Shown: positions 1 to 51,574 of the stretch, in pieces | Layout: each line of letters opens with the position of its first letter | How positions within the stretch are numbered: the first letter of the stretch is position 1 | Source: a virus | Virus record (IMG/VR): IMGVR_UViG_3300037484_000731 | Location: 1-64,000 of that record | DNA length: 64,000 nucleotides | Reading direction: 5' to 3' (one strand) | Translations under genes and position numbers: made by a program | Notes under the pieces: model-generated | The model's database searches: none | What the model was told of the DNA's origin: nothing | The model's input: the letters and a program-made list of their open reading frames with translations, nothing else

Positions 1-592
1 TCTTTGGCCAGCTAAAGAAAGCTACTGAATCCTGCTCCGCATATGAAGCATTATACGGCCAATCTGGATTTGTTGTCAGAGGATTTTCATCCTTCTGTGC
101 CGTTCCCTTAAACGGGGCTGATGTGTAATTATCCCCGCCGAAGGTAAGTTCCAAATCTTCAGCCGTAATCTGCAATCTCCTGATCCATAGCCTCATTTCA
201 CGCCCACTCTTATTCTTCCCGATAAGAACACAGGAAGGATATACTGCTGCTGGGGCTTCGTGACCCATTATTACTCTGTCCCAATTCGCATCACTGTCGT
301 CAAATCTCCTCTGGGAAATCAGAGCAATCGTCTCAGCCTGAAGCTGTTTCAGTTTGGCTTCAATAGTAAACTCCTGATCAACAATGTCCCTTGCAATTTC
401 AGTCTTCGGAATACCAGTTTTGAAGATAGCATATGTCAGCTTCTGCCTCCATATCTTCTCCGCTTCCAAATATCCAAGACTCTTGAGGCCGTTCCCATCA
501 TGTAAATCGATATACATCGCCGGATCATGCAGGAACATATAGTTAACGTTGTTGCCAAAGTTGACTGTGTTGATATTAAGATTGTTTGCCAT
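1..592 (-). CDS. hypothetical protein, N-terminal 197 aa only (gene continues past window start)
   Basis: Minus-strand frame opens at ATG 592 (GGAGG 8 nt upstream) and stays open to position 1 (MANNLNINTVNFGNN...FFSWPK). Missing from the ORF track because it is truncated. Sits after the glycan island in the late region, so it may be a structural protein. Confidence 0.5.
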   Translation of the reverse strand, partial: MANNLNINTVNFGNNVNYMFLHDPAMYIDLHDGNGLKSLGYLEAEKIWRQKLTYAIFKTGIPKTEIARDIVDQEFTIEAKLKQLQAETIALISQRRFDDSDANWDRVIMGHEAPAAVYPSCVLIGKNKSGREMRLWIRRLQITAEDLELTFGGDNYTSAPFKGTAQKDENPLTTNPDWPYNASYAEQDSVAFFSWPK

Positions 593-908
593 CGTCTTTT
601 CCTCCATTATAGTTTTTAAAGAGCTTCACAAACTCATCCGGTCTTAAAGCTCTATCATCAATGTAAAAATCGGCAACAGGCTTACCCATTACCAATGAAT
701 CATAATTGATGCCAATTTGACCGACTTGACTCATGGTATTAGCCAACTTATCCCAGTGTCTCGCCGTAAAAATAATGATGGTGTGGCCTTCCTTATGTAA
801 TTTATTGACCATAGCTACAACATCTTCATTAATCTTTAAAATATTATAGACTCCGTCCTTGAACTCGGTCTCGCAAATAGTCCCATCAAAATCAAAACAA
901 AGTGTCAT
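576..908 (-). CDS. HAD-superfamily phosphatase (small sugar-phosphate phosphatase type)
   Basis: Motif I CFDFDGT, motif II FTAR, motif III/IV GKPVADFYIDDR. Start trimmed to internal Met (MTLCFDFDG), which gives an ATGA overlap with the upstream gene and an AAGGAG RBS. Confidence 0.6.
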   Translation of the reverse strand: MTLCFDFDGTICETEFKDGVYNILKINEDVVAMVNKLHKEGHTIIIFTARHWDKLANTMSQVGQIGINYDSLVMGKPVADFYIDDRALRPDEFVKLFKNYNGGKDDGKQS

Positions 909-1726
909 CCTCTTAACTCCTTTCTCTTTTGCATTTCGCATTCAAATACCTTTCTGCCTTCTTCCACTCCCAGAGCAGATTCAATATCCCTGATTCCACG
1001 TACCAATTTAAATATTCCTGCTGGTTCAATACTTGATAATTGATCTGATCCCCACATCATTCGATCAAGAGTTACATGACGTTCAATCCACGTTGCACCA
1101 AGAGCTACTGCAGCAAATGTCGTTACAAGACCAAATTCATGTCCGGAATAACCTATATCTTTATTGACGTACATATTCTGTAGCCATTTTATATAATAAA
1201 GATTAAGGTCTTTGATATTTGCTGGATAAGCAGAATTACAGTGCATAACCACGTCCGGATTGCCAACTTTAACTGCATTTATTATTTCATCTTCTGTAGA
1301 CATTCCAGTTGAGATGATCATTTTTTTAAAGTTTCCTCTACACCATTGTAATAAAGATAAATCTGTTAATTTCGCAGAAGGAACTTTTACAATAGAATCT
1401 CCAAACTGTTGTAAAAAGACCACTGAATCCATATCCCACGCAGAAGCAAACCACTTGATCCCCTTCTCCTTACAATATTGATCTATCTGTTCATATTGGT
1501 TGCCATCAAGCTCCAGTTTATATTTATATTCAATATATGAAATAGTCCCCCACGGCGTCACTCTCGGTATATTTTTTTGATGATCCGGTACGCAGACGTC
1601 CGGATTTCTTTTTTGAAATTTTACATAATCTATACCGGCTGCAGCACATACGTCAATCAGCCTCTTCACGATGTTCATATCACCATTATGATTGATTCCT
1701 ATGTCTGCAACAAGTTTAATACTCAT
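905..1726 (-). CDS. NeuB-family nonulosonic-acid (sialic-acid-like) synthase
   Basis: N-terminal IADIGINHNGDMNIVKRLIDVCAAAGIDYVKFQ matches the NeuB/PseI/LegI signature (IAEIGxNHNGs...A.aGAdavKFQ). Start trimmed to MSIKLVADIGINHNG (ATGA overlap with the HNH gene). Confidence 0.7.
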   Translation of the reverse strand: MSIKLVADIGINHNGDMNIVKRLIDVCAAAGIDYVKFQKRNPDVCVPDHQKNIPRVTPWGTISYIEYKYKLELDGNQYEQIDQYCKEKGIKWFASAWDMDSVVFLQQFGDSIVKVPSAKLTDLSLLQWCRGNFKKMIISTGMSTEDEIINAVKVGNPDVVMHCNSAYPANIKDLNLYYIKWLQNMYVNKDIGYSGHEFGLVTTFAAVALGATWIERHVTLDRMMWGSDQLSSIEPAGIFKLVRGIRDIESALGVEEGRKVFECEMQKRKELRG

Positions 1727-2148
1727 AATATTTCTCCCTGATGAATACAATAACCAAAAGCACCAATATGACAATTACAATTAAAACAAAGAACTCGAAA
1801 TCCTTCAGGATAGCCATTTTTCTTAAGCCATTCATAAAACTTCCAACCACCTTGTATATTAATTTCTTTTCTGTGTTTTCGGCCACCACCGTTCACGTGG
1901 TCAATAGTAAGAAAATTAATGTAGTTTTCTCCACAACATTCACATTTACCGCCGTAATATTGTATTACCTCTTGTTTTAATTTAATTCTGTATTTCTTTT
2001 GTGAACTCTTTTTAATATAGGCCATTGATTGTTTACCTTTGTCTGTCTGTGCATATTTCTTACGTGCACGAATACGTACTTGCTTACCATTTTTCGTCTT
2101 CCGATAAATTTTATCGTATTCTTTCTTGGCCTCTTTCCGGTTAGTCAT
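1723..2148 (-). CDS. HNH homing endonuclease, zinc-finger subfamily (paralog 1 of 8)
   Basis: GGKCECCGE...FLTIDHVNGGGRKHR...GFRVLCFNCN...GYCIH; Lys-rich N-terminus. Confidence 0.75.
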   Translation of the reverse strand: MTNRKEAKKEYDKIYRKTKNGKQVRIRARKKYAQTDKGKQSMAYIKKSSQKKYRIKLKQEVIQYYGGKCECCGENYINFLTIDHVNGGGRKHRKEINIQGGWKFYEWLKKNGYPEGFRVLCFNCNCHIGAFGYCIHQGEIL

Positions 2149-2809
2149 TATTACATGCCGTCCTTACGTGAGATTTTTCCAGCAGTACATGTACCCACTG
2201 CCGGTAATCAACAAAGAAATTTATAGTCATGTTATATTTGAGACAGTTTGTATCAAAGAATTGTTTCCATTCAGAAGCAGTTTTGAGATTAATATGCACT
2301 GCACCAAGTCCCCTTTCTTCCCAATTTTTGTCTCGTGCTACTGCATGAGTCGCAATCTGATGATATACGAACCTCTTGGCCACCCTACATTCCTCGGCAA
2401 AGGTCTTTTCTTCAATTTCAACCGGAATATGTTCCATTCCATCTAAATGAGTAATTAGATCAAACTGATTGTCCTTAAACATATTCAAGTTATCAGCACT
2501 GGCCTCAACAATATTGAGGTCTGGTCTATACTTTCGGATCGTCTTAGCTGCGATATCAACACACGTAATTTGCAGCCACGGATATTCTCTCCTGAAGAAA
2601 TCCACCCAAAATCCACGACCGCAGCCAATGTCGAGCAGCGTCACAGATTCTTTAATTGCGGATTTAATGGACTGATGAATTACATCATTTCCTCTGAGGA
2701 AAGTCTTTGGCCTTCCAGACCTCCAGCCATACGTCTTATCCTCCGTATAAAGAAGGTTGTATTTCATCTTTTCCCGCTTTATTAAGATATTCCGTTTGTC
2801 GTCGTCCAT
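2141..2809 (-). CDS. class I SAM-dependent methyltransferase
   Basis: Motif I LLDIGCGRGFW followed by an acidic motif II region. Confidence 0.55.
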   Translation of the reverse strand: MDDDKRNILIKREKMKYNLLYTEDKTYGWRSGRPKTFLRGNDVIHQSIKSAIKESVTLLDIGCGRGFWVDFFRREYPWLQITCVDIAAKTIRKYRPDLNIVEASADNLNMFKDNQFDLITHLDGMEHIPVEIEEKTFAEECRVAKRFVYHQIATHAVARDKNWEERGLGAVHINLKTASEWKQFFDTNCLKYNMTINFFVDYRQWVHVLLEKSHVRTACNND

Positions 2810-3504
2810 TTGACATCCCCTTGTTTTATTCTTCCTTCAACGATCCCAGACAATAAATCCATAATAAAATCATCAGTCTTGAAATTCGGATGCGACATAA
2901 ACAGATTATAGAAGAACTTGGCATTACCATTGAAATCGTGTCCATCTTCCTTCTTGCCAACATTAATGATATTCCCCTGCGATCTGATCTTCTGGGGCAG
3001 GTATCCATCCAGATACTCTTGGTAATTATCATGTACGAATGCCGGATTTTTACTTGCAAAAAAATCAATCCCAGTCATGTAAAGTAATGCTGGCTGCTGA
3101 TCCAAGATGTCCTGTATGATATAATTACCCATGGATGCGCTTTTTAAAGCCTTATTCACTTTCAAAAATACGTCCCTGATCGTGCGAGCGCATATGTATT
3201 TATTAAATTCATTAAGGTCTTCCTGTGAGCTTCCCTTCAAACAGAGCCATTTGACTCCCCGTATCTTCATCTCTTTTATTGGGAAAGGCTTCATTTCCCT
3301 GTAATATTGCCTATTTACATAGGCCACATCGCACCGGCGTCCGTAGTCCTTGTAGTACTTATCCTTATTAAAAGCCCACGAATGGCCGGACTTTACAACA
3401 ATATCATATGAGTCAATTAATTTACCCATGTCACGATCAACCAAATTCGGACAAGCTCCGACAAAGACAACTTTCTTTCCTTTTATAAACTCTTTGAAAC
3501 CCAT
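2782..3504 (-). CDS. DUF115/Maf-like (motility-accessory-factor-like) putative glycan transferase
   Basis: GKKVVFVGACPNL...DIVVKSG resembles the DUF115 core (IIGnGPSL...cN). Confidence 0.4.
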   Translation of the reverse strand: MGFKEFIKGKKVVFVGACPNLVDRDMGKLIDSYDIVVKSGHSWAFNKDKYYKDYGRRCDVAYVNRQYYREMKPFPIKEMKIRGVKWLCLKGSSQEDLNEFNKYICARTIRDVFLKVNKALKSASMGNYIIQDILDQQPALLYMTGIDFFASKNPAFVHDNYQEYLDGYLPQKIRSQGNIINVGKKEDGHDFNGNAKFFYNLFMSHPNFKTDDFIMDLLSGIVEGRIKQGDVKWTTTNGIS

Positions 3505-4139
3505 TATATTTTACTAACCTCCCAAATACCCATCACTGAATAAATATGATCTGGTTTAATTAAATCGTGCTCCCGTATTACCTCTAATGGTGTTCCTAAG
3601 TTAAAAGGTGGTTTTGATAAATCTCTCTTTTCAAGCATTAAGCAAGTGGTGTCCCCATTTATTGGAACATTAAAAGAAGTTGTTACCATGAGATATTTAG
3701 ACCCACTCTTCTTAATATTATCAAGAGCCATTAAGATTTCTTTATTTGTTAAATGAATAAATACACTTCTAATGAACAACATATCTGATTGCGGAGGAAT
3801 TTCATCAACAATATTCATATATTTAAACTCAAAATTTGGATACTTCTTTTTATTACTTTCTATAAGTCTTTCAACTATATCAATACCAAGATATTTAATA
3901 CCAACCCAGTCAATGGTATTTAACCAATAAAAATTACCACACCCACAATCAGTAAATGTTTTAATATTATATCTTTTAAATATGTCTGGCATTTGTTGTT
4001 TAAGCTTAACATACTTAGACAAACTTTTCATTTTCCCCCAGAGACCAATATTATTAAGTTTTACATGTCTATTATAAAGCCTGTTCCATTGTTCCCGCAA
4101 AGACAACCCCTTTACTTCCTGTTCCCATTGTTTATCCAT
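3504..4139 (-). CDS. class I SAM-dependent methyltransferase
   Basis: FTDCGCGNFYW glycine-rich motif I; about 210 aa. Confidence 0.5.
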   Translation of the reverse strand: MDKQWEQEVKGLSLREQWNRLYNRHVKLNNIGLWGKMKSLSKYVKLKQQMPDIFKRYNIKTFTDCGCGNFYWLNTIDWVGIKYLGIDIVERLIESNKKKYPNFEFKYMNIVDEIPPQSDMLFIRSVFIHLTNKEILMALDNIKKSGSKYLMVTTSFNVPINGDTTCLMLEKRDLSKPPFNLGTPLEVIREHDLIKPDHIYSVMGIWEVSKI

Positions 4140-4158
4140 TTTAATTTCTCCTATTTAA

Positions 4159-5628
4159 TTATAACTTTTCTATACTCGTCTTTCTTTCCATAGGATCAAG
4201 TTTGTAAACCTCAGTATCCTTATAATATGAATCCCCAACTACGTGTGTAGTTGATATTTCCTCAAAGATCGCTCCTTTGTCATCAGTCCAAAACTCGTGC
4301 GCCCTATACCGGTCAACAAGGATATCATCACCTTTCTTTAATTCATGTATGTCATCTTCCAGTTTAACAGTTAGGTTGCCAAATAAAACCCTGAAAGTCT
4401 CTTCCTTGCTATGATGAACATGATTGAGATATTTCTGATTTGGCAACATAATTATATATTTCTTACAATACTGCCTATTTATCACGTCCACAATTACTGC
4501 ACCATATTCCTTGAACTTATCAAATCCGTAATGATGGCAAAGCTCTGCAGTACACTTACTATTTAGAACGATACCAGCTTCGGCCATCATTCCTTTTGCC
4601 TGATGAAAGTACAATCTGACAAGTCTTATTTTATCCTTACTGTCATCATGATCGAGGATTGGATCATTTTTCTTATAATCTACACTGGCACTCACATGAC
4701 TTCTATATGCGCCATATTCTTCCGCAAGGAGTTGGTTTCTATGATTCGGGAATGCGAAGAATATATCTCCATGCTTGATGTCCGAACCCTTTGATACGTC
4801 CTTGGACGCCCAAACACCCCGTTTTAAAGCCCTGAGGCTCTCCCGTTCCTCTTCCGGAATGTTTTTAAGGTCGTCCCCACAATATTGCATGGCCATATCA
4901 ATAAATTCAACATAAATTTTAGCTTCATCCGGTATGATTGAATAACTATTCCCCTGATCAAGTTTGATGTGCCGTTCTATGATCCCAGCCCCTTTGCCTA
5001 CCGCTATTCGGGCAGCATCCATCGTTCCGGCTGATGAATGATCCGAGAACCCAATAGGTACATCATATCGCCTCTTCATCTTGCTTATAACGTCGAGGTT
5101 CATATATCTTGGCGGAGCGGGATAAATACCACAGCAGTGCAACAACGAAAAATTACTCCCCTTATGCTTGAGGAAATTATACAAGTTGTCGATTTCATCC
5201 CAGTTGAGCCCACCCGTGGATGCTATGATTAACTTATCCCAATCCGATATCCTATCCAAGAGTCCCCACTCATTGGCGCAGCAGCTTGCAACCTTGACAA
5301 AATCAACATTACACTGCTTTATGAAATCGACTGAGTTCTCATCAAAAGGAGTAATCCCCAACATGAAACCCCTTTCCTTAATGTAAGAACAGAGCTTGAG
5401 AAAATCCTCGTTCTGCATTCTGGTATCCATAAACCTCTTGACATTAGCGACGTTGTAATCCGTCTTAAAGTCCGGATGAATAAACGTGTCAATGTCTCTG
5501 CGCTGCAACTTGATCGCAAAGTAAAACTTGTCATACTCCTTCTTTATAGGAGCGAGAGCATCTACTATCCGACATGCCTTCTCAAGGCTGCCGTCATGAT
5601 TATTGGCCATTTCCCATACTATAAGCAT
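4159..5628 (-). CDS. NeuB-family nonulosonic-acid synthase paralog with C-terminal extension
   Basis: N-terminus VWEMANNHDGSLEKACRIVDALAP...AIKLQ resembles the NeuB N-terminal signature; 489 aa, so an extra C-terminal domain. Confidence 0.55.
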   Translation of the reverse strand: MLIVWEMANNHDGSLEKACRIVDALAPIKKEYDKFYFAIKLQRRDIDTFIHPDFKTDYNVANVKRFMDTRMQNEDFLKLCSYIKERGFMLGITPFDENSVDFIKQCNVDFVKVASCCANEWGLLDRISDWDKLIIASTGGLNWDEIDNLYNFLKHKGSNFSLLHCCGIYPAPPRYMNLDVISKMKRRYDVPIGFSDHSSAGTMDAARIAVGKGAGIIERHIKLDQGNSYSIIPDEAKIYVEFIDMAMQYCGDDLKNIPEEERESLRALKRGVWASKDVSKGSDIKHGDIFFAFPNHRNQLLAEEYGAYRSHVSASVDYKKNDPILDHDDSKDKIRLVRLYFHQAKGMMAEAGIVLNSKCTAELCHHYGFDKFKEYGAVIVDVINRQYCKKYIIMLPNQKYLNHVHHSKEETFRVLFGNLTVKLEDDIHELKKGDDILVDRYRAHEFWTDDKGAIFEEISTTHVVGDSYYKDTEVYKLDPMERKTSIEKL

Positions 5629-6704
5629 GATATCACCTCATCAAATTTTTCTTCTGGAACTGTATATCTTACAACCGTAACTGGGCTATTATTATCAAGA
5701 CCCAAGTTGTTATGGTGAATGTAAATGTTAATGACTCCCTTTCTCGGTAGAATACCATACACTGAGTGACAAGTATTCTTCGGTTTTCCGTCCTTGAAAT
5801 GTACAATCTGCTCGTGAAAGTATCTGCCCACAATATCGAAATTTACTCCATCGACTCCACGTACCAGCCTGATGCAGCAGTTCCCATCAATATCAAAGTA
5901 TGGGATTAATCCCACAAAAATCTTTTTATATCTGAAGATTGATGGTGTATAATAGTTGTCTCTGTCTGCCTGATATCCATTAATGTTAATAAGTCTGAAT
6001 TTGTCCCAGTGTATGAGGTCTTTGGATGTTGAGTATTGAATGTATCTGAATCCAACTGCAACGTTCGCCCTCACATATAGAAAATATTGATCAGTATTCT
6101 CATCGTAGACGCAACAGACTTGACCGTCAAATTCCGATCCCTTGCCAAAATTCTTTATAGCATCAATAAAACCCTCATTTTTCGTGGTAACAATAGGTTT
6201 CTTTCCTATCTGCTCCCAGTGCAGACCTGTTTCACTCTTAAAAAGGTAAAGTCCTCTTACATGCTCCAACATCTTCTTATTAGATAAGAGTCTCTTATGT
6301 TCGGACAAGTCAAAAACTTCTCTCGTACAAGGCCACTGAAATTTTTCTTCATATACTTTCTTGAAAACATCATAACTCGTTATTCCATGGAATGCCCTGT
6401 CATGCTTCCAGTTATCTACACCGCCTATACTATACAAAGTTCTGTTCTTTCCATAGAAGGGAGTAAAGTTGTGTGTCGCTCCTGATGCTTTTAGTACAAC
6501 GGTCTTGCTCTGATCGAAGGTCACACCATCTCTGCTATCAGTACAGATAGTATTAAAATGTTTAACCCAGCGATTACTGTATAATCTAACTATTCCGTCC
6601 GGACACTTAATGATGGAATAATAAATCGCCTTTCTTGCATCCGATTCATATATCTGGTTTTCATATTTGAGTTTCAATTCCTTCATATCACCCTCTTTAT
6701 CCAT
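5619..6704 (-). CDS. hypothetical protein (361 aa) inside glycan island
   Basis: Long ORF in the operon frame with no motif I can name; could be a glycosidase- or transferase-like beta-rich protein. Confidence 0.4.
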   Translation of the reverse strand: MDKEGDMKELKLKYENQIYESDARKAIYYSIIKCPDGIVRLYSNRWVKHFNTICTDSRDGVTFDQSKTVVLKASGATHNFTPFYGKNRTLYSIGGVDNWKHDRAFHGITSYDVFKKVYEEKFQWPCTREVFDLSEHKRLLSNKKMLEHVRGLYLFKSETGLHWEQIGKKPIVTTKNEGFIDAIKNFGKGSEFDGQVCCVYDENTDQYFLYVRANVAVGFRYIQYSTSKDLIHWDKFRLININGYQADRDNYYTPSIFRYKKIFVGLIPYFDIDGNCCIRLVRGVDGVNFDIVGRYFHEQIVHFKDGKPKNTCHSVYGILPRKGVINIYIHHNNLGLDNNSPVTVVRYTVPEEKFDEVISCL

Positions 6705-7225
6705 GATGTATCTCTGAATACTGCATCTGGTTTCAGTAGCCGATCAACTACTAACTTTACCCTATTGTAGTCATGACCCCCGATCCATCCATTAATTCTA
6801 ACTTTTGGCAACCATATTCTAACATCATGGTCTACTACATCGGGCTGATGATTTCCATCAATGTACACAAAATCAAATACTTTCTTCTCAACAAAGAGCT
6901 TGACGGCATTGTCACTTGTTTCCCTCAAGTGTTGTACATTTTCAAATTTGTCCAGTATGTCAGTCTTAAACTGCTTATATACGTCCTCCATCGGATATTT
7001 GTATGATGATGTGTCGCTATCATCATATCCATTCTTATATGGATCGACTGAAATTACATGATTAAAATTTTGAGCAAAAACCCTTGTTGAATCACCAACA
7101 TAAGAACCAATTTCTACCATAATCATCCCCTTTGTCGGAGCGGGAGACTTAAGGTTTATATAATCAACCATATCTTTAAGTCCAATGATCGCATATGTAG
7201 CGTTTCTGATTGATATCTTATTCAT
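6683..7225 (-). CDS. SAM-dependent methyltransferase (TylF/Methyltransf_24-like)
   Basis: MVEIGSYVGDSTRVFAQNF motif I. Start trimmed to MNKISIRN (GGTGGAG RBS) to remove a 125-nt overlap with the GT8 gene. Confidence 0.45.
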   Translation of the reverse strand: MNKISIRNATYAIIGLKDMVDYINLKSPAPTKGMIMVEIGSYVGDSTRVFAQNFNHVISVDPYKNGYDDSDTSSYKYPMEDVYKQFKTDILDKFENVQHLRETSDNAVKLFVEKKVFDFVYIDGNHQPDVVDHDVRIWLPKVRINGWIGGHDYNRVKLVVDRLLKPDAVFRDTSWIKRVI

Positions 7226-7946
7226 GATTATATCTCCACCATTCACGCTCAAGCATTGCATATTGTTCCTCTCGAACATTGGTCTTCTTCTGCCACGGCT
7301 TCTCGCCCACATAATGTAAAATCCGCATGGTTTGCAGCACATGCTTGAATTTGTTCGTATAGAGCATTCTCTTTTCTACATTAAAGACCTTGTCGAGGTA
7401 CATCATACGATTTCTGAAGTAATGATTGATTACCGTCTGATCCGGCATCTTATGTCCAGACCTCGCAATCCTGAGCATCTCAACATAAACCTGTTCATTA
7501 AGGAATTGCTGATTGACAACAAACACCCCAGAATTTATATCACGTCTCATCATATCATGTAACGGATCATAACCCTTGACTGCTGCAAATCCCGCAGTCG
7601 TTGCAAAAAGCTGCTTAATATCTCCTAATATGAGAGTATCCGAATCAATAAATACGAGCCGTTCATATCCCTTCATATTGAATATATCAAGCTTGTAGTA
7701 AGTACATCTTAATTTTGGGGCTGTCTTCTCAAAATCAGTCCCCGCATATCTTTTCTTATCAATTGGCTGCCATGTGATGTCTTTATATATTTGAGTCAGT
7801 TTTCCCTTTGTCTCCGGCAGCACCCCGTCATCAAGTATCACAACCGGAAGATCAAACCAAGGATTATTCTTGAGTAATGACCTTATCATTGCTTTAAAGC
7901 CAATTACAAACTCTTCGTTCAGCATCGTTACAAGTGCCGTTTTCAT
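7218..7946 (-). CDS. family GT8 retaining glycosyltransferase
   Basis: DxD motif LVFIDSDTLIL and C-terminal HYVGEKPW (GT8 HYxGxxKPW signature). Confidence 0.7.
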   Translation of the reverse strand: MKTALVTMLNEEFVIGFKAMIRSLLKNNPWFDLPVVILDDGVLPETKGKLTQIYKDITWQPIDKKRYAGTDFEKTAPKLRCTYYKLDIFNMKGYERLVFIDSDTLILGDIKQLFATTAGFAAVKGYDPLHDMMRRDINSGVFVVNQQFLNEQVYVEMLRIARSGHKMPDQTVINHYFRNRMMYLDKVFNVEKRMLYTNKFKHVLQTMRILHYVGEKPWQKKTNVREEQYAMLEREWWRYNHE

Positions 7947-8593
7947 TTTTTTTGCTCCTCTAAATGTTCAAAATCTTTGATGGTATCAACATCAACCATC
8001 TCACCTATTGGATAGAAAACTGTTTTCTTATTCCATAGATTTTTATTTAGTTTTTTTATTTCACCGGCATATGCAATAAAGATAGCATGACTTGCCTTGA
8101 ACATCCGTGGGTAATCCTGTCTTCTGTAAAGATCGTGTTTTATAATTTGTCTCCCAGTACAATCCTTCATACTATCAAAGAACCATCTATACGGATGGAT
8201 TTCATCATTTGTCTGTTCCTCTCTGCAGAGAAGTGACTTCCCTTTCACTCTATCGAAGAATTTATGTGCTGCAATGATTTGCTTCCATGTTCTGGTCGGA
8301 TAAGTAAGATAGAGCATTGTGATTTTATCAGTATCTGGTATATTGTAATGATTAATTACATCCAAAAGAACTGATTTAGTATGCGCCGTATCTGTACAAA
8401 GCTCTGCTCTCCTTATGTGAATATGAAATCCTTTGGTCAAAGCAACATGACAGATCGTCATATCATCCGTCGTCACAATTACTCGACTTACCAGTGACGA
8501 CGGAATCATATTAGCCGTATAAGAAAAAAGTTTTCTGTTCTTAAGCGGTAAACCTTTACTACCCTGACGAGCCGGTATTATTATCCAATTCAT
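7943..8593 (-). CDS. acylneuraminate (nonulosonate) cytidylyltransferase, NeuA/CTP_transf_3 family
   Basis: N-terminus NWIIIPARQGSKGLPLKN matches the CMP-sugar synthetase signature (AIIPARggSKgipgKN). Confidence 0.7.
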   Translation of the reverse strand: MNWIIIPARQGSKGLPLKNRKLFSYTANMIPSSLVSRVIVTTDDMTICHVALTKGFHIHIRRAELCTDTAHTKSVLLDVINHYNIPDTDKITMLYLTYPTRTWKQIIAAHKFFDRVKGKSLLCREEQTNDEIHPYRWFFDSMKDCTGRQIIKHDLYRRQDYPRMFKASHAIFIAYAGEIKKLNKNLWNKKTVFYPIGEMVDVDTIKDFEHLEEQKK

Positions 8594-9024
8594 ATGAGTC
8601 CCTCTTTCTTGAAGAGTTCCTCGATGTTGACGATCGCCCAGTTCACATCAAACATATCAATATGAATATGAGCACCAAAGCTAAATCCAACATCGGCATA
8701 GAAACCAAGCTGGTCTCCTTCCAGTACTTTCTGTCCTTTATAGACCATATTCTCCCTGAGATGACAGTACCTCACGTGGTAAAGTCCATTCTCAAGCCGA
8801 TGATCTATAATCACCACATTACCGAGAGAATGCTTACGATCAGTCCACCTCAACGACTCCTGATAGTTATCCATGTCATACGACACGTTCCCCTCTGCAA
8901 TCGCAAAAATGCTATCACTCTCTCTACTGATTAAATCCAATCCTCCATGGAACTCCTCTTTTCCTTTAAGGATTCGTTTCCCAAAGTGGCTGGTTATTAC
9001 CGCATTGTCAACTGGCAGCCTCAT
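8590..9024 (-). CDS. M23/LytM-family metallopeptidase
   Basis: HFGKR...FHGGLDL (HxxxD) and GAHIHIDMF (HxH). Confidence 0.6.
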   Translation of the reverse strand: MRLPVDNAVITSHFGKRILKGKEEFHGGLDLISRESDSIFAIAEGNVSYDMDNYQESLRWTDRKHSLGNVVIIDHRLENGLYHVRYCHLRENMVYKGQKVLEGDQLGFYADVGFSFGAHIHIDMFDVNWAIVNIEELFKKEGLI

Positions 9025-9844
9025 GTAACACCTCCTCTATTTTTTGTACCCTAAAAAAGGGTATTACAGTATTAGGATTCAGATTAATGATCCGATCCTT
9101 ATAAAAATCAAAATGCTTGAACATCTTGATATTAGTCGCTGCTCGTTCACCTCGGTATCCCTTATCATTGCCATATCTCACTTTACCATCTGAATCATAG
9201 AAGTGAAGATCGACAGCATTTTTATTTAGGTCATATCCGAGTAAATAGATTGGGTTAGCATCCATCGCTATAGCCAGACTGATTGCTGCCATACCAGTTA
9301 GTCTCGCTCCCCAGATTCCCCTATTAAATTTGGCCTGTACTCGGTCATTGTTTACATAAAAGGGGATCGCATTTGGATTATCTTTGTGATACTGCGTCCT
9401 GAAGGAACAAAAAATCATACCTTTATACGATTGAAAAAACTTTCTTGCTTCATTATCATTCTTATCGAGAAAATTTGCATCGAGGAATATGCAAGCGTCG
9501 GCTTTCGGATAATAGATCACCGAGTGATTGATTGCGATAGTAAAATCATTATCCAGACGTGAAAAATCAAACCCTCTCAGACTTGATCCCCCGCCGATAA
9601 TGAAACACCGCTTTCCTTTAAGCATTCCATCTATGTTGTGCTTGTCACGTGTGAGACCACTGAATTTGTCAAATAGTCTCTGGGTATCTTCATCTGGGAT
9701 ATAATCACCTGATTCAATCAGTTCTCTGCACATATTAAGGGGAGCTATAACCCAGTCCCCCTTCTTTATCTTCTGAATACGATCAGGGTAGACCACATCT
9801 TTAATCAAAGCTTTACCCGTGTATTGTACATTACCTACTATCAC
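9008..9844 (-). CDS. DUF115/Maf-like putative nonulosonate/glycan transferase
   Basis: GKRCFIIGGGSSLRGFDFSRL...FTIAINHS matches the DUF115 core. Confidence 0.5.
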   Translation of the reverse strand: MIVGNVQYTGKALIKDVVYPDRIQKIKKGDWVIAPLNMCRELIESGDYIPDEDTQRLFDKFSGLTRDKHNIDGMLKGKRCFIIGGGSSLRGFDFSRLDNDFTIAINHSVIYYPKADACIFLDANFLDKNDNEARKFFQSYKGMIFCSFRTQYHKDNPNAIPFYVNNDRVQAKFNRGIWGARLTGMAAISLAIAMDANPIYLLGYDLNKNAVDLHFYDSDGKVRYGNDKGYRGERAATNIKMFKHFDFYKDRIINLNPNTVIPFFRVQKIEEVLHEAAS

Positions 9845-10323
9845 GATAATAACCCCACATCCCTGTAAAATTCGACTCGTATTTCGGCTCTCGCCACGAA
9901 GAACCGGTCTTCTCTTTCGAGATAATCCATGGGAATTGACGTATTGTCTGGTAATATACCATCAACAATACCCCCCAAAGTCTCGTCAAACTTAATCGCA
10001 GTCCATATGTCATCAGAAAAATCAAGTATCCCAACTCTGTAAGTATCCGAATTATCATCACCCATTATAGCAATATTTAATTCCATTGACGTTGTTGCAA
10101 ACTGGATGAGTACTGGAAATACATGACGTTCAAATTCTTTCCTTGACATATCATCAACAGCCCGCTCTATCCGTGCATCTGAAGGTACGACGTTAAAGAA
10201 CGGAAATTTATCCTTTTCCATCAGTTCATATGGGTCTTCTGCCACATAAGCGGATTGAAAAGCATAACTTAAGTCCGGATGATTCTTTAACTGATTGAGT
10301 AATGCTGTTACTGTCCTTTTCAT
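9841..10323 (-). CDS. hypothetical protein, probable head/neck structural component
   Basis: ORF with a 4-nt overlap to its neighbours, between capsid genes and the glycan island. Confidence 0.4.
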   Translation of the reverse strand: MKRTVTALLNQLKNHPDLSYAFQSAYVAEDPYELMEKDKFPFFNVVPSDARIERAVDDMSRKEFERHVFPVLIQFATTSMELNIAIMGDDNSDTYRVGILDFSDDIWTAIKFDETLGGIVDGILPDNTSIPMDYLEREDRFFVARAEIRVEFYRDVGLLS

Positions 10324-11446: not shown

Positions 11447-12397
11447 TTAGTCTATGACGTTCTGCATTAAATACCAAGTTTTTAACTCGGCCTGTAGAAT
11501 ATCATAATCCCATTCAGCTAAAATCTTCATGCCGTCTGGGTCTGTCTGATTCTCGGTGTATATCTTTAGCGGATCATACTCCATTGTCAGCACGCCGAAC
11601 ATCTCGTCAACACCTGGGTTTGCCGGAACGTAACCTATCAGGACGTCCTTACCCCAAGTATTTCCTACTGATGCGGTTAAACCCTTGTTGTAATTACCTA
11701 CACGGCCATTGGAAACAACAACGTTGAGTCCCTTAATCACTGGCGGGAGACCAACGAGTCTCTGCACTTGACCTTGGAAATCAGCCTGCATTAATTCCAT
11801 ACCGTACTGGTACTTCAACATTTCTCTTACCCAGCTCATTTTGGCAAGGTAAAGGGCTGCTTGGAAAGGAATTATGATCGTATTGGCTATCGCACCGCAA
11901 CCATCATATATTGCTTTAACAGCGTTGAGGATGCTGGTTTCGGGATCAGGGTTGGAATCATCCCATTGAGCATTTGTAATGCTCTCAACATCTTCATACT
12001 GTGTAACGAGTGTCGGGTCTCTCAATACTGCAGCTACCCTTAACTCGTGTTTTAATTTTAATCTGTGAGTCAGCTTATTGGTTTCCCTCTGCTGAAGTTT
12101 GACAGGCTGTTTTGCATTTTGAGCTTCTTTATTTGTAATAACGGAACTCAACGCACGTCTCCTTGTTCTGTAAGAATAAGGAGTTCCAACAGCAAAGTCA
12201 ACTTTATTGGAAGGAACACTTTCGGCGTCATCATTCATCTGCATGATCGCATCATCAGCGTCAACAAACACCTTGTCGCTGAAGTTCTCAACCGGCACTC
12301 TGGGGCAAACTTTGTCTGCAATCAGATTACCAGTGGGATAGCTTAATGCCAGATTAGTTAGATATTGGTCGTATCTTACAATACCCTTAGTACTCAT
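11447..12397 (-). CDS. major capsid protein (candidate)
   Basis: 316 aa; sits after the scaffold-like and decoration-like genes and before the connector-like genes; followed by a stem-loop. No motif-level proof. Confidence 0.5.
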   Translation of the reverse strand: MSTKGIVRYDQYLTNLALSYPTGNLIADKVCPRVPVENFSDKVFVDADDAIMQMNDDAESVPSNKVDFAVGTPYSYRTRRRALSSVITNKEAQNAKQPVKLQQRETNKLTHRLKLKHELRVAAVLRDPTLVTQYEDVESITNAQWDDSNPDPETSILNAVKAIYDGCGAIANTIIIPFQAALYLAKMSWVREMLKYQYGMELMQADFQGQVQRLVGLPPVIKGLNVVVSNGRVGNYNKGLTASVGNTWGKDVLIGYVPANPGVDEMFGVLTMEYDPLKIYTENQTDPDGMKILAEWDYDILQAELKTWYLMQNVID

Positions 12398-12853: not shown

Positions 12854-15091
12854 TTATGACCTGATCTCAATGCCCGCCTGAGTCAAAGCAGCATGTTGTG
12901 TCATGCCCTGCGCTACAAGCTCTCTTGTCCTGTCGGCGATCTTTTTAGTTTCGTCATCGGACTGAGCAGATAGCGAAGTCCTTGTCTGTTCGGTCATCTT
13001 GATTTTGTTAGGATAGTTCTTGAACAAGTCTGTAATGAAAGAAGAGATCGGTTTCTTGATCTCAATTTCCTTGTCATCGACTTTTTCAGAGAACATCACG
13101 ACTTGATCTCCCTGTTCGGACATCAAGACTGGCTTGAACAACTTGATGACATAGGGCGGAACTCCATCGAGTCCAGCCTCTTTACAAATTGCATCAGCCG
13201 TTGATTTCTTAGATTCAAGCCTTGTGTCTTTAAAGCTCTCACTCAGCTTGGCCACAGCCTTGTCCTTCTCTACAAGTTGCAACCTAACAATGTTAAGTTG
13301 ATCTTCGTATTTCTGGACTGCTGTACCCACTGCGTTATCCACAATGGATTGTACATCTGAAAGAGCAATCATATCACCGTCAGCTCTCTTGGAAACTATA
13401 GGAGTTTCTTCTTTCTTCTTCCCGATTGATTTGATCATCTCAGAGAATTTTGTCAGAAGACCCTCATTGTTCTTTTCAAGCTTTTGCTCAATGATCTGCT
13501 CAACATTTATGGTTTTATCATTATCGCCCATAAACTTTCCTCCGTCTTCTAATGATAAATTCCCCCTATAGCCAAGTCCCTGACTCATCGGCACGTCTAC
13601 CACGTGCTTCATAGAAGGAATGTTGCTCAGAGCTACTGCTCTGATTATATTCTTTCCTGTCTCCCGCCAGTTTCTAACAAGCTCCGGTGAAAGACTGGTG
13701 AATAGCCTACCGCCAAATACCAAATCCTTGAGTTTGGATGGAATCTGTTTGATGTCAGCCACAACCCTACGCCCCTTTCTCCTGAAGTTGGAGAGTAGAC
13801 CCAAATTTGGTAATTCTTCCCAAATGTCAACGTCTGCCATCTTGTACAGCTCTCTTAATATGAGCTGCTGATCTGAATGGCTAAGCTTAACATTTGGCTT
13901 GACCAATCCTTTATTAATTACTTCATTAGTCCATTTTGCGTAGTCCTCTAAGTCCTGCTCCGAGAACTGTAGTCCATAAGAGTTAGGATAATTGTTTAAT
14001 ACTTCAACCTCTTTTATCTCTGTGTAATCGCCAGAGAAGAGATCACTTATTAACTCTGACATCTTCATATCCTTATTCCCCTTATCTTCTTTTTTCCCAG
14101 TAAGAGGCTCATCAAATAACTCGTTCATCATCTCACTGGTCATATCTTCAAATTCGTCGCTATCAGTCATCTTTATTTCGTCATCCTTCACGAGCTGCCA
14201 GTCTCCCTGAGCGACTTTCTTATATTTCTTCCCATCCTTACGAGTTGAAATGTGTCCGATTGGATACCCCTTCACTGCTTTTTCGCTCTTTTCCTGCCCG
14301 ATCTCCTCAAGGTAGATTGCACTTACATGCTTAGCATGAGAAACAATATCATTATCAAAGTAATCATCTTCTTTCTTTACTATTCTATATCTCACGTCTC
14401 TGGAAACAACAACTTCTTTTTCTTTGGGAAAACGTGAAAAACCCTGAATATCCACAGCCTGAGTGTTCTTCTCTATAATAATCTTTAAGTTGTATCCATC
14501 AGGCTCATATTCTCCATTCTTCTTAGAAAAAGAAGACATTGCACTAAGCTGAAATTCCTCCCCAACTATGGCCTTAGCATACAAGCCATTTTTATCCTCA
14601 ACTCGTCTGCTAATCTCTCCTTTGTATTTGGGAGCAGTATCAATATATTCCTTCATTGTATGATATACATTACCAATTCTCGTACCTTCATATGTACTAA
14701 TATCAAATCCTTTGTCAATCCCTCTAACTTGCTTCACTAAATCAGAATCACGAGTCCACTCATCTATATCCTTGAACTGCCTTTCATCTACTTTAACAGT
14801 ATAATCACTCTCACTATCACCGCCACGAACTAAGACCTCATATGTAGAACCCATATTTATACCAAGAGGAGTAGCAATATATTCTTTATCTCCTTGGGCA
14901 AGCGGATTGTCAGCCTGTAATTCATCAAATTTATATCTTTCAGAGGATTGCAGTCCTCCCCCGCCCTTGGGAGCAAATTTCCCATTATCCCCTCTTGGAT
15001 GTTCTTCCTCTTCCCAATCAGAAAATTTCTTCGGATTAAGTTCCTCGGCAAAAATCTGATTAAAGAGTTCCTGTAAACTAATTTCTACCAT
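12854..15091 (-). CDS. large acidic head-morphogenesis protein (scaffold-like C-terminal half)
   Basis: 745 aa, Glu/Lys-rich with coiled-coil-like C-terminal 250 aa; position between portal and capsid. Confidence 0.35.
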   Translation of the reverse strand: MVEISLQELFNQIFAEELNPKKFSDWEEEEHPRGDNGKFAPKGGGGLQSSERYKFDELQADNPLAQGDKEYIATPLGINMGSTYEVLVRGGDSESDYTVKVDERQFKDIDEWTRDSDLVKQVRGIDKGFDISTYEGTRIGNVYHTMKEYIDTAPKYKGEISRRVEDKNGLYAKAIVGEEFQLSAMSSFSKKNGEYEPDGYNLKIIIEKNTQAVDIQGFSRFPKEKEVVVSRDVRYRIVKKEDDYFDNDIVSHAKHVSAIYLEEIGQEKSEKAVKGYPIGHISTRKDGKKYKKVAQGDWQLVKDDEIKMTDSDEFEDMTSEMMNELFDEPLTGKKEDKGNKDMKMSELISDLFSGDYTEIKEVEVLNNYPNSYGLQFSEQDLEDYAKWTNEVINKGLVKPNVKLSHSDQQLILRELYKMADVDIWEELPNLGLLSNFRRKGRRVVADIKQIPSKLKDLVFGGRLFTSLSPELVRNWRETGKNIIRAVALSNIPSMKHVVDVPMSQGLGYRGNLSLEDGGKFMGDNDKTINVEQIIEQKLEKNNEGLLTKFSEMIKSIGKKKEETPIVSKRADGDMIALSDVQSIVDNAVGTAVQKYEDQLNIVRLQLVEKDKAVAKLSESFKDTRLESKKSTADAICKEAGLDGVPPYVIKLFKPVLMSEQGDQVVMFSEKVDDKEIEIKKPISSFITDLFKNYPNKIKMTEQTRTSLSAQSDDETKKIADRTRELVAQGMTQHAALTQAGIEIRS

Positions 15092-50440: not shown

Positions 50441-51574
50441 TTAGAATGGAAGTACTGCGCCGTAAATAACGTCCCAGTTATCAAGGATGATTTTACATGC
50501 ATCCTTTTCCTCTTTACTACCTGACCTCAACAAATATTGAATGTAAGGTTTACCGGTCTGAATGATGACCTGATCAAGAGTGTTACCCTTATAAACTCCA
50601 ACTGTACATTGAACAGCAAGTACTGGCTTAAATTGCTCCGGTAAGGCCACCGGCAGATTTGTACTACCTGCAACATTTGCTGGCTTACCTGCTGGTATTT
50701 GTACTGCTGGTTGTGCTACTGCTTGTCCAGTCTTTGGAGGCTTACCAAATTCAGATTGAGGTACAGTAACTACTTGATCAACCCCCATACCTGTCGGCAT
50801 ATTTACCTGTACGGGTTGTCCTGTAACTGGTTTACTGGTATTTACTGGTACTGGCTGCCCTGTTTCAGCAACCGGTACTGATCCCCACCCCGAAATATCA
50901 ATCTGCGGAAACTGACTATACCTCTGCTGAAAATAAGTCGGAGGGTAAGTCCCCGTTTTAGCTAATACTTCCTGATGAGAAAGAATAAGTTCGTTCTGAG
51001 CTTTCTCCAGAGTCCACATATTCTCTTTAAGATACTTCTGAATTTGAGGAGTCAAGACATTCTGCGATAAGTCAACCCTATACACAGTATTTCTCATTTG
51101 CCCCATACGAGTAATAAATATCGCATTATGAAACTTTTCAGTTTGACGCTGCAATAAGAAATTTACTCCATCCTGTATCTGTTTGCCCGCCATAAGCCAA
51201 GCAAGACAGTTAAACTGAAAATCCCACACCATAAGGACAGCTTTTTTGCTGATTCCCCTCGGCAGTCTGCCGTTGGTTTCCTTATAATTTGGATTCTGAA
51301 GCTTATATATCTCATTATCGAGACACCATGGGCAAGCTTCATTCCATTTGTTGCAGACGACCGTTACATATTGTCCCTGCATATTTTTAAACTCATGTAC
51401 CCATGCACCGACAGGATACTGCCATGTACCAGTCGGATCGAGTTCGCCGGTCAATAGAGCAAGTTCCCTTGACGTATCTGGCAGAACTGTAACGAATGGC
51501 ATGCCGGTTTTGTAATCCCAAAACGGCTCTAATGGTTTGTTCCCGCTCTGTTGGTCTGGTAACCAATTACCCAT
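50441..51574 (-). CDS. putative ssDNA-binding protein (gp32-like zinc site)
   Basis: H-x14-C-x6-C-x2-C (WVHEFKNMQGQYVTVVCNKWNEACPWC) resembles the T4 gp32 Zn site; Pro/Gln/Val-rich low-complexity C-terminal region; adjacent to recA. Confidence 0.4.
   Translation of the reverse strand: MGNWLPDQQSGNKPLEPFWDYKTGMPFVTVLPDTSRELALLTGELDPTGTWQYPVGAWVHEFKNMQGQYVTVVCNKWNEACPWCLDNEIYKLQNPNYKETNGRLPRGISKKAVLMVWDFQFNCLAWLMAGKQIQDGVNFLLQRQTEKFHNAIFITRMGQMRNTVYRVDLSQNVLTPQIQKYLKENMWTLEKAQNELILSHQEVLAKTGTYPPTYFQQRYSQFPQIDISGWGSVPVAETGQPVPVNTSKPVTGQPVQVNMPTGMGVDQVVTVPQSEFGKPPKTGQAVAQPAVQIPAGKPANVAGSTNLPVALPEQFKPVLAVQCTVGVYKGNTLDQVIIQTGKPYIQYLLRSGSKEEKDACKIILDNWDVIYGAVLPF

Follow-up and report, generated by a model that had tools for sequence, protein, structure and literature searches.

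The stretch of DNA analyzed here (the window) comprises 64,000 nucleotides, positions 1 to 64,000 of the IMG/VR virus record IMGVR_UViG_3300037484_000731. Near its start, the minus strand encodes a short NeuB-family synthase directly followed by a minimal HAD phosphatase (table 1). The synthase reading frame extends from an ATG at 1726..1724 to a TGA at 907..905 (protein MSIKLVADIGINHNGD...VKFQK...), and its stop codon overlaps the start codon of the HAD gene (908..906), plus-strand positions 905–908 reading tcat (minus-strand ATGA). This arrangement of a 273-amino-acid (aa) synthase overlapping a minimal phosphatase had been noted in a preliminary description of the DNA and is confirmed by the sequence, the list of open reading frames (ORFs), Pfam, and a motif alignment. 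An alternative HAD start, the ATG at 941 of the JGI gene call (121 aa), finds no support; the Met encoded at 908 has the same start position in 45 out of 56 homologs and carries AAGGAG 8 nt upstream. It is likely that the two enzymes catalyze consecutive steps of a phage-encoded route with a phosphorylated intermediate, leading to a cytidine monophosphate (CMP)-activated 3-deoxy-ulosonic (sialic-acid-like) sugar.

The synthase and the phosphatase

The synthase consists of the TIM-barrel domain only. The Pfam NeuB model (PF03102) is matched over positions 1–239 of 241 with 224 bits (cut-off 22.1). The match to the 329-position NeuB model TIGR03569 covers positions 3–273 and stops there, indicating that the C-terminal SAF (antifreeze-like) domain is absent. 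With 215.5 bits for TIGR03569 (equivalog cut-off 399.65) and 154.6 bits for TIGR03586 (cut-off 340.25), both NCBIfam scores are under their cut-offs, and together with the missing SAF domain this argues that the protein is not a canonical NeuB, PseI, or LegI equivalog. All metal- and phosphoenolpyruvate (PEP)-binding residues of NmNeuB that were checked (K53, Q55, K129, S132, S154, Y186, S213, H215, E234, H236, and D247) are present in the window synthase, which conserves K36, Q38, K114, S117, S139, Y167, S194, H196, E215, H217, and D228. E25 of NmNeuB corresponds to D8, a conservative change at a position that is Glu in 36 out of 39 clade members. Two signatures separate the enzymes with phosphorylated substrates from the classical enzymes: a lysine right after the substrate-binding Gln (K39 in the window synthase; 100% vs. 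0%) and the sequence SGHE at the metal-binding His, which the window synthase shares, instead of SDH. K39 may bind the phosphate group of the substrate. The position aligned with the human NANS mutation that is reported to abolish 2-keto-3-deoxynononic acid 9-phosphate (KDN-9-P, also written Kdn-9-P) synthase activity is Val26 and is not informative. The enzyme is predicted to condense PEP with an aldose phosphate to a 3-deoxy-ulosonate phosphate.

The relationships of the synthase were analyzed in a neighbor-joining tree of 62 NeuB domains (251 columns). References for NmNeuB, CjPseI, BsSpsE, and the short NeuB of Leptospira (6ncs) were taken from PDB alignments, and bacterial and viral homologs from genome and virus scans; for the Prymnesium parvum Kdn-9-P synthetase, the sequence is a translation of the construct used for its expression (supplement of PMC6200933). 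The vertebrate NANS references are real sequences, retrieved as cluster representatives 96–97% identical to the query, and only the retrieved sequences were used. The window synthase belongs to a clade of short viral and bacterial NeuB proteins of 270–300 aa (91.5% bootstrap). A split with 93.5% support places this clade, the Prymnesium Kdn-9-P synthetase, and vertebrate NANS on one side and NmNeuB, CjPseI, BsSpsE, 6ncs, and ten bacterial NeuBs of 340–360 aa on the other. The ranking of the BLAST scores agrees with this split since both characterized phospho-substrate enzymes (NANS, 171 bits; Prymnesium Kdn-9-P synthetase, 154 bits) stand above all classical references (6ncs, 127; PseI, 107; SpsE, 97; NmNeuB, 94). 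The Prymnesium enzyme is a 312-aa protein that has no SAF domain and converts mannose 6-phosphate (Man-6-P) but not mannose (PMC6200933). Overall, the comparison supports an assignment of the synthase to the sugar-phosphate-dependent group (NANS and Kdn-9-P synthase) and not to the NeuB, PseI, and SpsE enzymes; a firm grouping with NeuB/PseI is what the preliminary description had named as refuting its proposal. In a word-index protein search with the synthase, each of the 8,000 candidates scored reached E ≤ 1e-10, so that metagenomic homologs of similar length number in the thousands. The top 120 are 269–281 aa long and, the window's own protein aside, 58–69% identical to the query.

The phosphatase displays the HAD motifs FDFDGT (I), FTAR (II, Thr48, plus Arg50), GK76P (III), and IDD84-85 (IV). 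Residues D6, D8, T10, T48, R50, K76, and D85 are identical in all 56 distinct homologs aligned, and both D84 and D85 are invariant in a 30-sequence alignment of HAD homologs. The AlphaFold2 model (predicted local distance difference test, pLDDT, in table 1) is a bare Rossmann-like core with no cap. In every library tried (NCBIfam, PDB, Foldseek, and PHROG) the best match is to the EcbF/BcbF-AfhF family. The TIGR01689 model ("EcbF/BcbF capsule biosynthesis phosphatase") scores 44.7 bits, far under its curated cut-off of 162, and the PDB matches are 9iqw (phmmer, about 35% identity), which is also the top Foldseek match, and 1xpj (1.5e-8). A first view of the protein as a "capsule biosynthesis" enzyme of undefined role was replaced once the fold search identified 9iqw as AfhF, the D-arabinose-1,5-diphosphate phosphatase of phage HY126. 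The HAD is thus probably to be placed among sugar-phosphate phosphatases and not among the histidinol-phosphatases or nucleotidases that the preliminary description had named as the alternative. AfhF is Mg-dependent and strips the terminal phosphate of arabinofuranose-1,5-bisphosphate (Araf-1,5-P2) to give Araf-1-P, which AfhE then turns into uridine diphosphate (UDP)-arabinose for the arabinosylation of 5-hydroxycytosine in DNA (PMC13326640). Other members of the family are fused to NTP_transferase domains (in some cases together with an APH-type kinase), GmhA-like SIS domains, methyltransferases, or QueC. By analogy, AfhF and the fusions to nucleotidyltransferases point to the removal of an omega-phosphate from a sugar just before its nucleotide activation as the probable role of the family.

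The phrog_1238 family matched by the HAD is annotated "phosphoheptose isomerase." Because the protein bears HAD phosphatase motifs, this label is probably erroneous and may well have been transferred from neighboring or fused GmhA/SIS genes. The bacterial contexts of the HAD homologs are either uninformative (sulfotransferase neighbors) or belong to other sugar-phosphate pathways. A small-HAD homolog from marine bacteria (P0134; loci L009, L010, and L011, 8001..8354) is located in a glycan locus between a 326-aa protein and an FSA/transaldolase-type aldolase, next to a DHBP synthase and an NTP_transferase, and the phosphatase family appears to serve another, as yet undescribed sugar-phosphate pathway there.

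In Bacteroides thetaiotaomicron, the KDN pathway consists of the KDN-9-P synthase BT1714, the KDN-9-P phosphatase BT1713, and a CMP-KDN synthetase; the vertebrate phosphatase NANP, about 250 aa long, is an HAD with a C1-type cap. The preliminary description had likened the window pair to the pairing of a synthase with a dedicated HAD in animals and Bacteroides, a parallel that fails at the level of the phosphatase, which is no homolog of BT1713/KdsC or NANP. Neither of the KdsC/KDN-9-P phosphatase models TIGR01670 and NF058599 is among its NCBIfam matches at E ≤ 0.01, a custom KdsC hidden Markov model (HMM) has no match anywhere in the window, and the similarity to the KdsC/BT1713 family is a distant one of fold only (Foldseek E about 4e-3, template modeling score 0.45–0.5). 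Judged by its length and the predicted model without a cap, the protein cannot be of the capped NANP type, a comparison in which no NANP sequence was aligned directly. The lack of relationship to BT1713 or NANP and the proximity to AfhF suggest a non-orthologous replacement of the cellular phosphatases.

Linkage of the two genes in viruses and bacteria

The synthase is encoded on at least 294 IMG/VR contigs. From the 294 matching contigs, 80 loci were included in a census of gene neighborhoods, and clustering of the synthases at 90% identity resulted in 57 non-redundant loci. Neighbors were counted with our own ORF calls and HMMs, the seeds of which were verified with NCBIfam or Pfam; a regular-expression screen for DxD motifs undercounted the neighboring HADs, and HMMs from NCBIfam-verified matches were used instead. 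The same small HAD is found ≤5 kb from the synthase in 65 out of 80 loci (45 of the 57 non-redundant loci) and is directly adjacent, on either side, in 26 out of 57. A cytidylyltransferase occurs together with the short NeuB in 45 of the 57 loci. The order of the genes varies. Loci with the HAD upstream of the synthase include L012, L130, and L152, and in one locus (L114) a single 333-aa protein directly after the synthase combines a PseF-like cytidylyltransferase with an EcbF-type HAD. Seen from the HAD side, all three of the closest homologs on longer contigs are directly downstream of a NeuB of 273–274 aa, two of them with 4-nt overlaps. For the synthase, the first contexts inspected were phage contigs of 30, 37, and 200 kb with the same module. 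A megablast of positions 500..9900 against 50,697 GenBank phage records found nothing, and a protein-level search of the same records identified two close relatives, both uncultured and none from a cultured isolate.

Three IMG/VR loci with a short NeuB (L130, L147, and L154) are labeled GVMAG, that is, giant-virus bins, so the module may extend beyond tailed phages. In L147 and L154, neither an HAD nor a cytidylyltransferase is encoded within 5 kb. A 638-aa viral protein (L115, 6524..8440) matches the EcbF-type HAD in its central segment, and its flanks resemble, by eye, a methyltransferase (N-terminal) and a glycosyltransferase (C-terminal). The locus L022 (CP070724.1, 512212..529018, the 2.3-Mb chromosome of a metagenome-assembled genome (MAG) named "Thermoplasmatales archaeon") has the gene layout and the identical NeuB (P0061) of the 30-kb phage contig L001. 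This identity reflects one of two things: an integrated provirus, and with it a hint of an archaeal host, or an artefact of binning or assembly.

The linkage extends to bacteria. A total of 36 bacterial loci, mostly from MAGs and some possibly with viral sequence, encode a NeuB of the same clade (45–53% identity). The flank contains an HAD of the KdsC/KDN-9-P-phosphatase family in 24 of them, in most cases adjacent, with matches to TIGR01670 and NF058599 at 1e-20 to 1e-40. One further locus carries an EcbF-type HAD, giving 25 out of 36 loci with an HAD compared with none of 11 loci of classical 340–360-aa NeuBs (Fisher P = 4e-5). Five loci contain fusions of a cytidylyltransferase and a KdsC domain (confirmed by Pfam in L023), and several other KdsC-type phosphatases are fused to a GmhA-like isomerase. 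That two unrelated phosphatase families accompany the same synthase clade, and that both are found fused to a cytidylyltransferase, are the strongest arguments that the synthase forms a phosphorylated product, which loses its phosphate before CMP activation.

Ten loci have a GmhA-like sedoheptulose-7-phosphate isomerase (TIGR00441, 1e-49 to 1e-58, under the curated cut-off) that adjoins the short NeuB or forms one protein with its phosphatase: the viral loci L019 (5423..7459) and L020, with the order SIS-NeuB-HAD, and the bacterial loci L028, L030, L041, L043, L054, L055, L060, and L067. Furthermore, the representative library contains an EcbF-type HAD-GmhA fusion (P0283). A heptose-7-phosphate substrate, and hence a 10-carbon ulosonic acid, is a real possibility in these lineages; the SugarBase preprint provides context for higher-carbon CMP-ulosonic acids. 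Two other bacterial fusions of the short NeuB were observed, one with a xylose-isomerase-like TIM barrel (L045, 8001..9740, a SAR324 MAG) and one with a cytidylyltransferase-like domain that was assigned by eye (L064, 4791..6422, a Lentisphaera MAG).

The operon around the pair

The window is a phage genome that encodes a small and a large terminase, a Mu-like portal/MuF, Pol III alpha, a primase-helicase, and RecA. All genes from 576 to about 12,400 are on the minus strand, and the synthase and the HAD close a glycosylation operon set between head/neck genes and a gene running off the window start (table 1).

Table 1. Genes of the glycosylation operon and the adjacent head gene
Position	Strand	Length (aa)	Product	Evidence and remarks
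576..908	minus	110	Minimal capless HAD phosphatase, probably EcbF/BcbF-AfhF family	TIGR01689 1.1e-11; PDB 9iqw 2.8e-14; phrog_1238 8e-31; AlphaFold2 pLDDT 85
905..1726	minus	273	Short NeuB-family synthase, no SAF domain	Pfam NeuB 2.3e-66
1723..2148	minus		HNH endonuclease, not part of the pathway	phrog_2255 1.3e-10; between methyltransferase and short NeuB
2141..2809	minus	222	SAM-dependent methyltransferase	Methyltransf_25/11/23, 2e-11 to 6e-9
2782..3504	minus	240	Putative GT29-like (sialyltransferase-family) glycosyltransferase	No direct Pfam match
3504..4139	minus	211	SAM-dependent methyltransferase	phrog_3382 1.4e-27; weak Methyltransf_25
4159..5628	minus	489	Second, long NeuB with C-terminal metal-binding cupin	NeuB 7.7e-41; Cupin_2 8e-7
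5619..6704	minus	361	Conserved protein, no assigned function	Inside the module
6683..7342	minus	219 (listed ORF)	Methyltransf_24-type methyltransferase	Methyltransf_24 2.2e-15
7218..7946	minus	242	GT8-family glycosyltransferase	Glyco_transf_8 1.9e-24
7943..8593	minus	216	CMP-ulosonate cytidylyltransferase	CTP_transf_3 5e-7; PseF model 3.3e-17
8590..9024	minus		M23 peptidase	9.6e-15; between sialyltransferase-like gene and cytidylyltransferase
9008..9844	minus	278	Sialyltransferase-like/MptE-like transferase	phrog_4603 "alpha-2,3-sialyltransferase" 1.5e-16; weak MptE-like 1.3e-3
11447..12397			Major head protein	phrog_1005

The cytidylyltransferase matches the PseF model far better than KdsB (5e-3) and is 26% identical to the Prymnesium CMP-Kdn synthetase (E 6e-10), bearing out its earlier description as the CMP-activating enzyme. 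The GT8 gene is kept beside it in L001, L002, and L003. The putative GT29-like transferase was assigned by synteny: 234-aa proteins that hold its position in L073 and in the contig carrying P0129 match PF00777 (Glyco_transf_29). A counterpart of the 2141..2809 S-adenosylmethionine (SAM)-dependent methyltransferase is found directly upstream of the short NeuB in relatives, and the true start of the Methyltransf_24-type enzyme is probably an internal Met because its homologs are 185–199 aa long. The conserved 361-aa protein has no Pfam, NCBIfam, or PHROG match, and proteins of 348–357 aa occupy its position in L003, L073, and the contig carrying P0129. The HNH endonuclease gene has ATGA overlaps at both sides and is not at that position in L003 and L073; the M23 peptidase gene has such an overlap with the cytidylyltransferase gene.

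The second NeuB gene named in the preliminary description is confirmed and was found to encode a C-terminal cupin. The best PDB matches of the cupin, both weak, are the D-lyxose/D-mannose isomerases 2y0o (6e-4) and 7nzo (1.6e-3). In the neighbor-joining tree, the long NeuB and a viral 491-aa protein (vir_L013_491) form a deep separate branch apart from the classical and the phospho-substrate groups. All catalytic residues examined are retained apart from D247, where the alignment has a gap, and the protein combines SDH, as in classical enzymes, with Arg-Arg following the substrate-binding Gln. The NeuB-cupin protein recurs in L003, L013, L075, and the contig carrying P0125 and is absent from other close relatives (L073). 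A degenerate duplicate was rejected on the basis of the retained residues and this recurrence, and the divergent duplicate considered in the preliminary description gives way to a separate, deep-branching, cupin-fused lineage with nearly all catalytic residues kept. The protein is probably an accessory, functional second synthase.

A scan for precursor genes covered every ORF between 576 and 12397 plus about 20 of the larger ones beyond, leaving out the 1890-aa ORF at 58209..63881 and most ORFs <200 aa. Among the scanned ORFs, there is no NeuC, aminotransferase, acetyltransferase, sugar kinase, nucleoside diphosphate (NDP)-sugar pyrophosphorylase, or SIS isomerase, and the aldose is therefore most likely obtained ready-made from the host, whose sugars occur as phosphates.

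Two genes outside the operon deserve mention. A 346-aa adenylosuccinate-synthetase-like protein (51628..52668, minus strand; Adenylsucc_synt 4e-44) is encoded near Pol III alpha, the primase-helicase, and RecA and could be a PurZ-like enzyme, suggesting 2-aminoadenine (Z) DNA in this phage; the neighboring ORFs 50441..51574 and 53219..53875 have no Pfam match. Between the head genes and the Mu-like portal, a 745-aa protein (12854..15091, minus strand) contains an ADP-ribosyltransferase exoenzyme domain (8.9e-6) and may be an ejected or virion-associated toxin-like enzyme.

Proposed route, alternatives, and known systems

From sequence, structure prediction, and gene context, we infer substrates, step order, sugar chain length, and acceptor as follows. 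The SAF-less synthase would condense PEP with a host-derived aldose phosphate to an ulosonate omega-phosphate, the capless HAD would hydrolyze the terminal phosphate of this product, and the PseF-like cytidylyltransferase would form the CMP-sugar. The GT29/GT42-like and GT8 transferases would attach the sugar and the three methyltransferases would decorate it. The phosphatase would have been recruited from the AfhF/EcbF family and not from the KdsC/BT1713 or NANP families of cells. The place of the operon among structural genes, between head and tail genes, is all that suggests a virion protein as the acceptor. Overall, the phosphorylated route of the preliminary description, with the HAD acting before CMP activation, is supported by the tree, the linkage in viruses and bacteria, and the fusions, and its more specific claim of a 9-phosphate is not established.

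The favored, if tentative, choice of substrate and product is Man-6-P and KDN-9-P. It is favored because Man-6-P is the substrate of the nearest characterized SAF-less enzyme (Prymnesium), because the scanned ORFs of the window offer no maker of an N-acylated precursor, and because the operon's only isomerase-like domain, the cupin of the long NeuB, is weakly closest to D-lyxose/D-mannose isomerases. The absence of the whole SAF domain adds to this preference; in NmNeuB the SAF domain contacts the N-acetyl group of the substrate.

Several observations weigh against the proposed route. The tree is distance-based and contains few characterized references, with BT1714, LegI, and insect or other NANS outside it, and the position of the Prymnesium Kdn-9-P synthetase as the sister of the short-NeuB clade has 56% support only. 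AfhF, the only characterized relative of the HAD, has a pentose bisphosphate as its substrate and belongs to a UDP-sugar pathway; BLAST detects no significant similarity between the HAD and BT1713 (E = 0.58), and the HAD family is large (its profile matches 5,460 representative clusters at E ≤ 1e-10) and is found in many other contexts. No phosphatase was found in the flank of 12 out of 57 non-redundant viral loci and 11 out of 36 bacterial loci. The GmhA-like neighbors point to a heptose-7-phosphate substrate in at least some relatives, so the product need not have nine carbons. Finally, 4-nt ATGA overlaps occur at about 6 of the 14 operon junctions (e.g., 1723–1726, 7943–7946, 8590–8593, 9841–9844, and 10320–10323), including a junction of the HNH endonuclease gene. 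They are a generic feature of the operon and no evidence for consecutive enzymatic steps, which leaves the translational coupling invoked in the preliminary description a weak argument.

The closest competitor shares the phosphorylated route and differs in the sugar. Arabinose-5-phosphate would be converted to a C8 product resembling 3-deoxy-D-manno-octulosonic acid (Kdo), or D-glycero-D-manno-heptose-7-phosphate to a C10 3-deoxy-decu-losonic acid, and the HAD would remove the 8- or 10-phosphate. The ten loci with GmhA-like isomerases (L019 and L020 included), the HAD-GmhA fusion P0283, and the PHROG label "phosphoheptose isomerase" on the HAD family fit this explanation. It is nevertheless unlikely for the window, which has no SIS isomerase and whose sole isomerase-like domain is the cupin; the nearest characterized synthases yield C9 products, and the cytidylyltransferase is far better on PseF than on KdsB (3e-17 vs. 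5e-3). Another order of steps, in which an aldose phosphate is dephosphorylated first (e.g., Man-6-P to mannose) and the free sugar is then condensed with PEP as by classical NeuB, would agree with the resemblance of the cupin to isomerases of unphosphorylated lyxose and mannose and with the loci in which the HAD gene is 5' of the synthase gene (L012, L130, and L152), and gene order and co-occurrence alone cannot fix the order of the steps. We consider it improbable, given that bacteria place KdsC/KDN-9-P-type phosphatases, the known substrates of which are ulosonate phosphates, at this position and that HAD and KdsC domains are fused to the cytidylyltransferase, the consumer of the dephosphorylated ulosonate, and not to the synthase.

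Two further explanations detach the HAD from the synthase. As an AfhF-like sugar-1,omega-bisphosphate phosphatase of a separate NDP-sugar pathway (e.g., for DNA or glycan arabinosylation or heptosylation), the HAD would be located by chance beside a classical, phosphate-independent NeuB. AfhF is its closest characterized homolog, fusions to NTP_transferase, some of them with an APH-type kinase as well, are frequent in the family and fit bisphosphate pathways, and a bacterial homolog is found among NTP_transferase, DHBP synthase, and FSA-type aldolase genes with no NeuB. A chance neighborhood is nonetheless very improbable, as the linkage to the short NeuB and a CMP-type cytidylyltransferase in 45 out of 57 viral loci, in variable order and with one fusion, is hard to ascribe to coincidence, and the scanned ORFs of the window include no anomeric kinase, NDP-sugar pyrophosphorylase, or SIS isomerase. 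Least credible of all is a role apart from sugars, as a PNKP-like polynucleotide 3'-phosphatase or a nucleotidase in DNA/RNA repair or nucleotide-pool remodeling. A weak HAD_PNKP match (1.3e-4, under the cut-off), PHROG "polynucleotide kinase" families, and T4 PNKP among the distant fold matches would speak for it; the EcbF/AfhF matches are much stronger, there is no kinase or ligase partner, and the gene is inside a glycosylation operon and conserved with the synthase.

A phosphorylated intermediate on the way to a CMP-activated ulosonic acid is thus the preferred reading, and it has implications for viral biology. Sialic-acid-like sugars on microbial surfaces govern recognition by immune systems, lectins, and phages. 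The three enzymes form a testable cassette for CMP-KDN-type donors, the analysis assigns a likely function to a large family of 100-aa HAD proteins that lacked annotation, and it provides a lead towards acidic-sugar glycosylation of virions in environmental phages. A more far-reaching and rather doubtful proposal is that a large set of uncultured phages, joined by some giant-virus bins, synthesizes a CMP-activated, O-methylated ulosonic acid with the synthase, an AfhF-type phosphatase, and a cytidylyltransferase to glycosylate its own virions, the GmhA-adjacent relatives producing an undescribed 10-carbon 3-deoxy-ulosonic acid from heptose-7-phosphate. If virion glycosylation and the C10 product were both true, the particles would be acidic, "sialylated" phages carrying a new class of viral sugar.

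To our knowledge, the phosphorylated route has been shown biochemically only in animals, B. thetaiotaomicron, and one alga. Literature searches on phage together with nonulosonic acid, NeuB, or Kdn, and on 9IQW or "capsule biosynthesis phosphatase," retrieved no description of such a phage pathway; PMC6292376 was rejected as a precedent since the match was to an author name and a KDNase reference only. The B. thetaiotaomicron pathway has the same three steps that are proposed here: a NeuB-family synthase takes a sugar phosphate as substrate, a small HAD of the capless (C0) type removes the phosphate, and a CMP-transferase follows. Among the bacterial relatives of the synthase, phosphatases of the BT1713/KdsC family are encoded in the flanks. 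The window HAD differs from BT1713 in length (110 vs. 164 aa) and shares no sequence homology with it, and the window pathway is viral and located within virion genes. The Prymnesium synthase is likewise SAF-less, is 32% identical to the window enzyme (E 1e-49), and has the KFQKRNP, ISTGM, and SGH motifs in common with it, and the cytidylyltransferases are homologous. Unlike the phage, Prymnesium, a eukaryotic alga, yielded no dedicated phosphatase (PMC6200933). In the vertebrate NANS/NANP/CMAS pathway, which runs through Neu5Ac-9-P, the order of steps is the same and the synthase (37% identity to mammalian NANS) is on the same side of the 93.5% split; NANS has a C-terminal SAF domain, NANP is capped, and the window shows no source of N-acetylmannosamine 6-phosphate.

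The Kdo pathway (KdsD-KdsA-KdsC-KdsB) follows a similar logic of an isomerase, PEP condensation to an ulosonate phosphate, a C0 HAD, and a CMP-transferase, and isomerase domains (GmhA-like SIS, cupin, and xylose-isomerase-like TIM barrel) recur beside or fused to the short NeuB or its phosphatase. The synthase of the window type is a member of the NeuB family (PF03102) and not of the KdsA/DAHP-synthase family, the isomerases are not KdsD, and the window phosphatase is not KdsC. The closest parallel for the phosphatase is AfhF of HY126, which is also phage-encoded and, directly before nucleotide activation, takes the terminal phosphate off the primary alcohol of a sugar (PMC13326640). The partners of AfhF are an arabinose-5-phosphate isomerase and the kinase/UDP-sugar pyrophosphorylase AfhE and the target is DNA, whereas the partners in the window are a NeuB synthase and a CMP-type cytidylyltransferase. 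The viral version would borrow an HAD family that phages use to make UDP-arabinose for DNA modification. Overall, the comparison indicates that the logic of the pathway is known and that its novelty is in its viral nature and wide distribution among uncultured viruses, in the AfhF/EcbF-family phosphatase, and in a virion-gene operon that includes transferases and methyltransferases.

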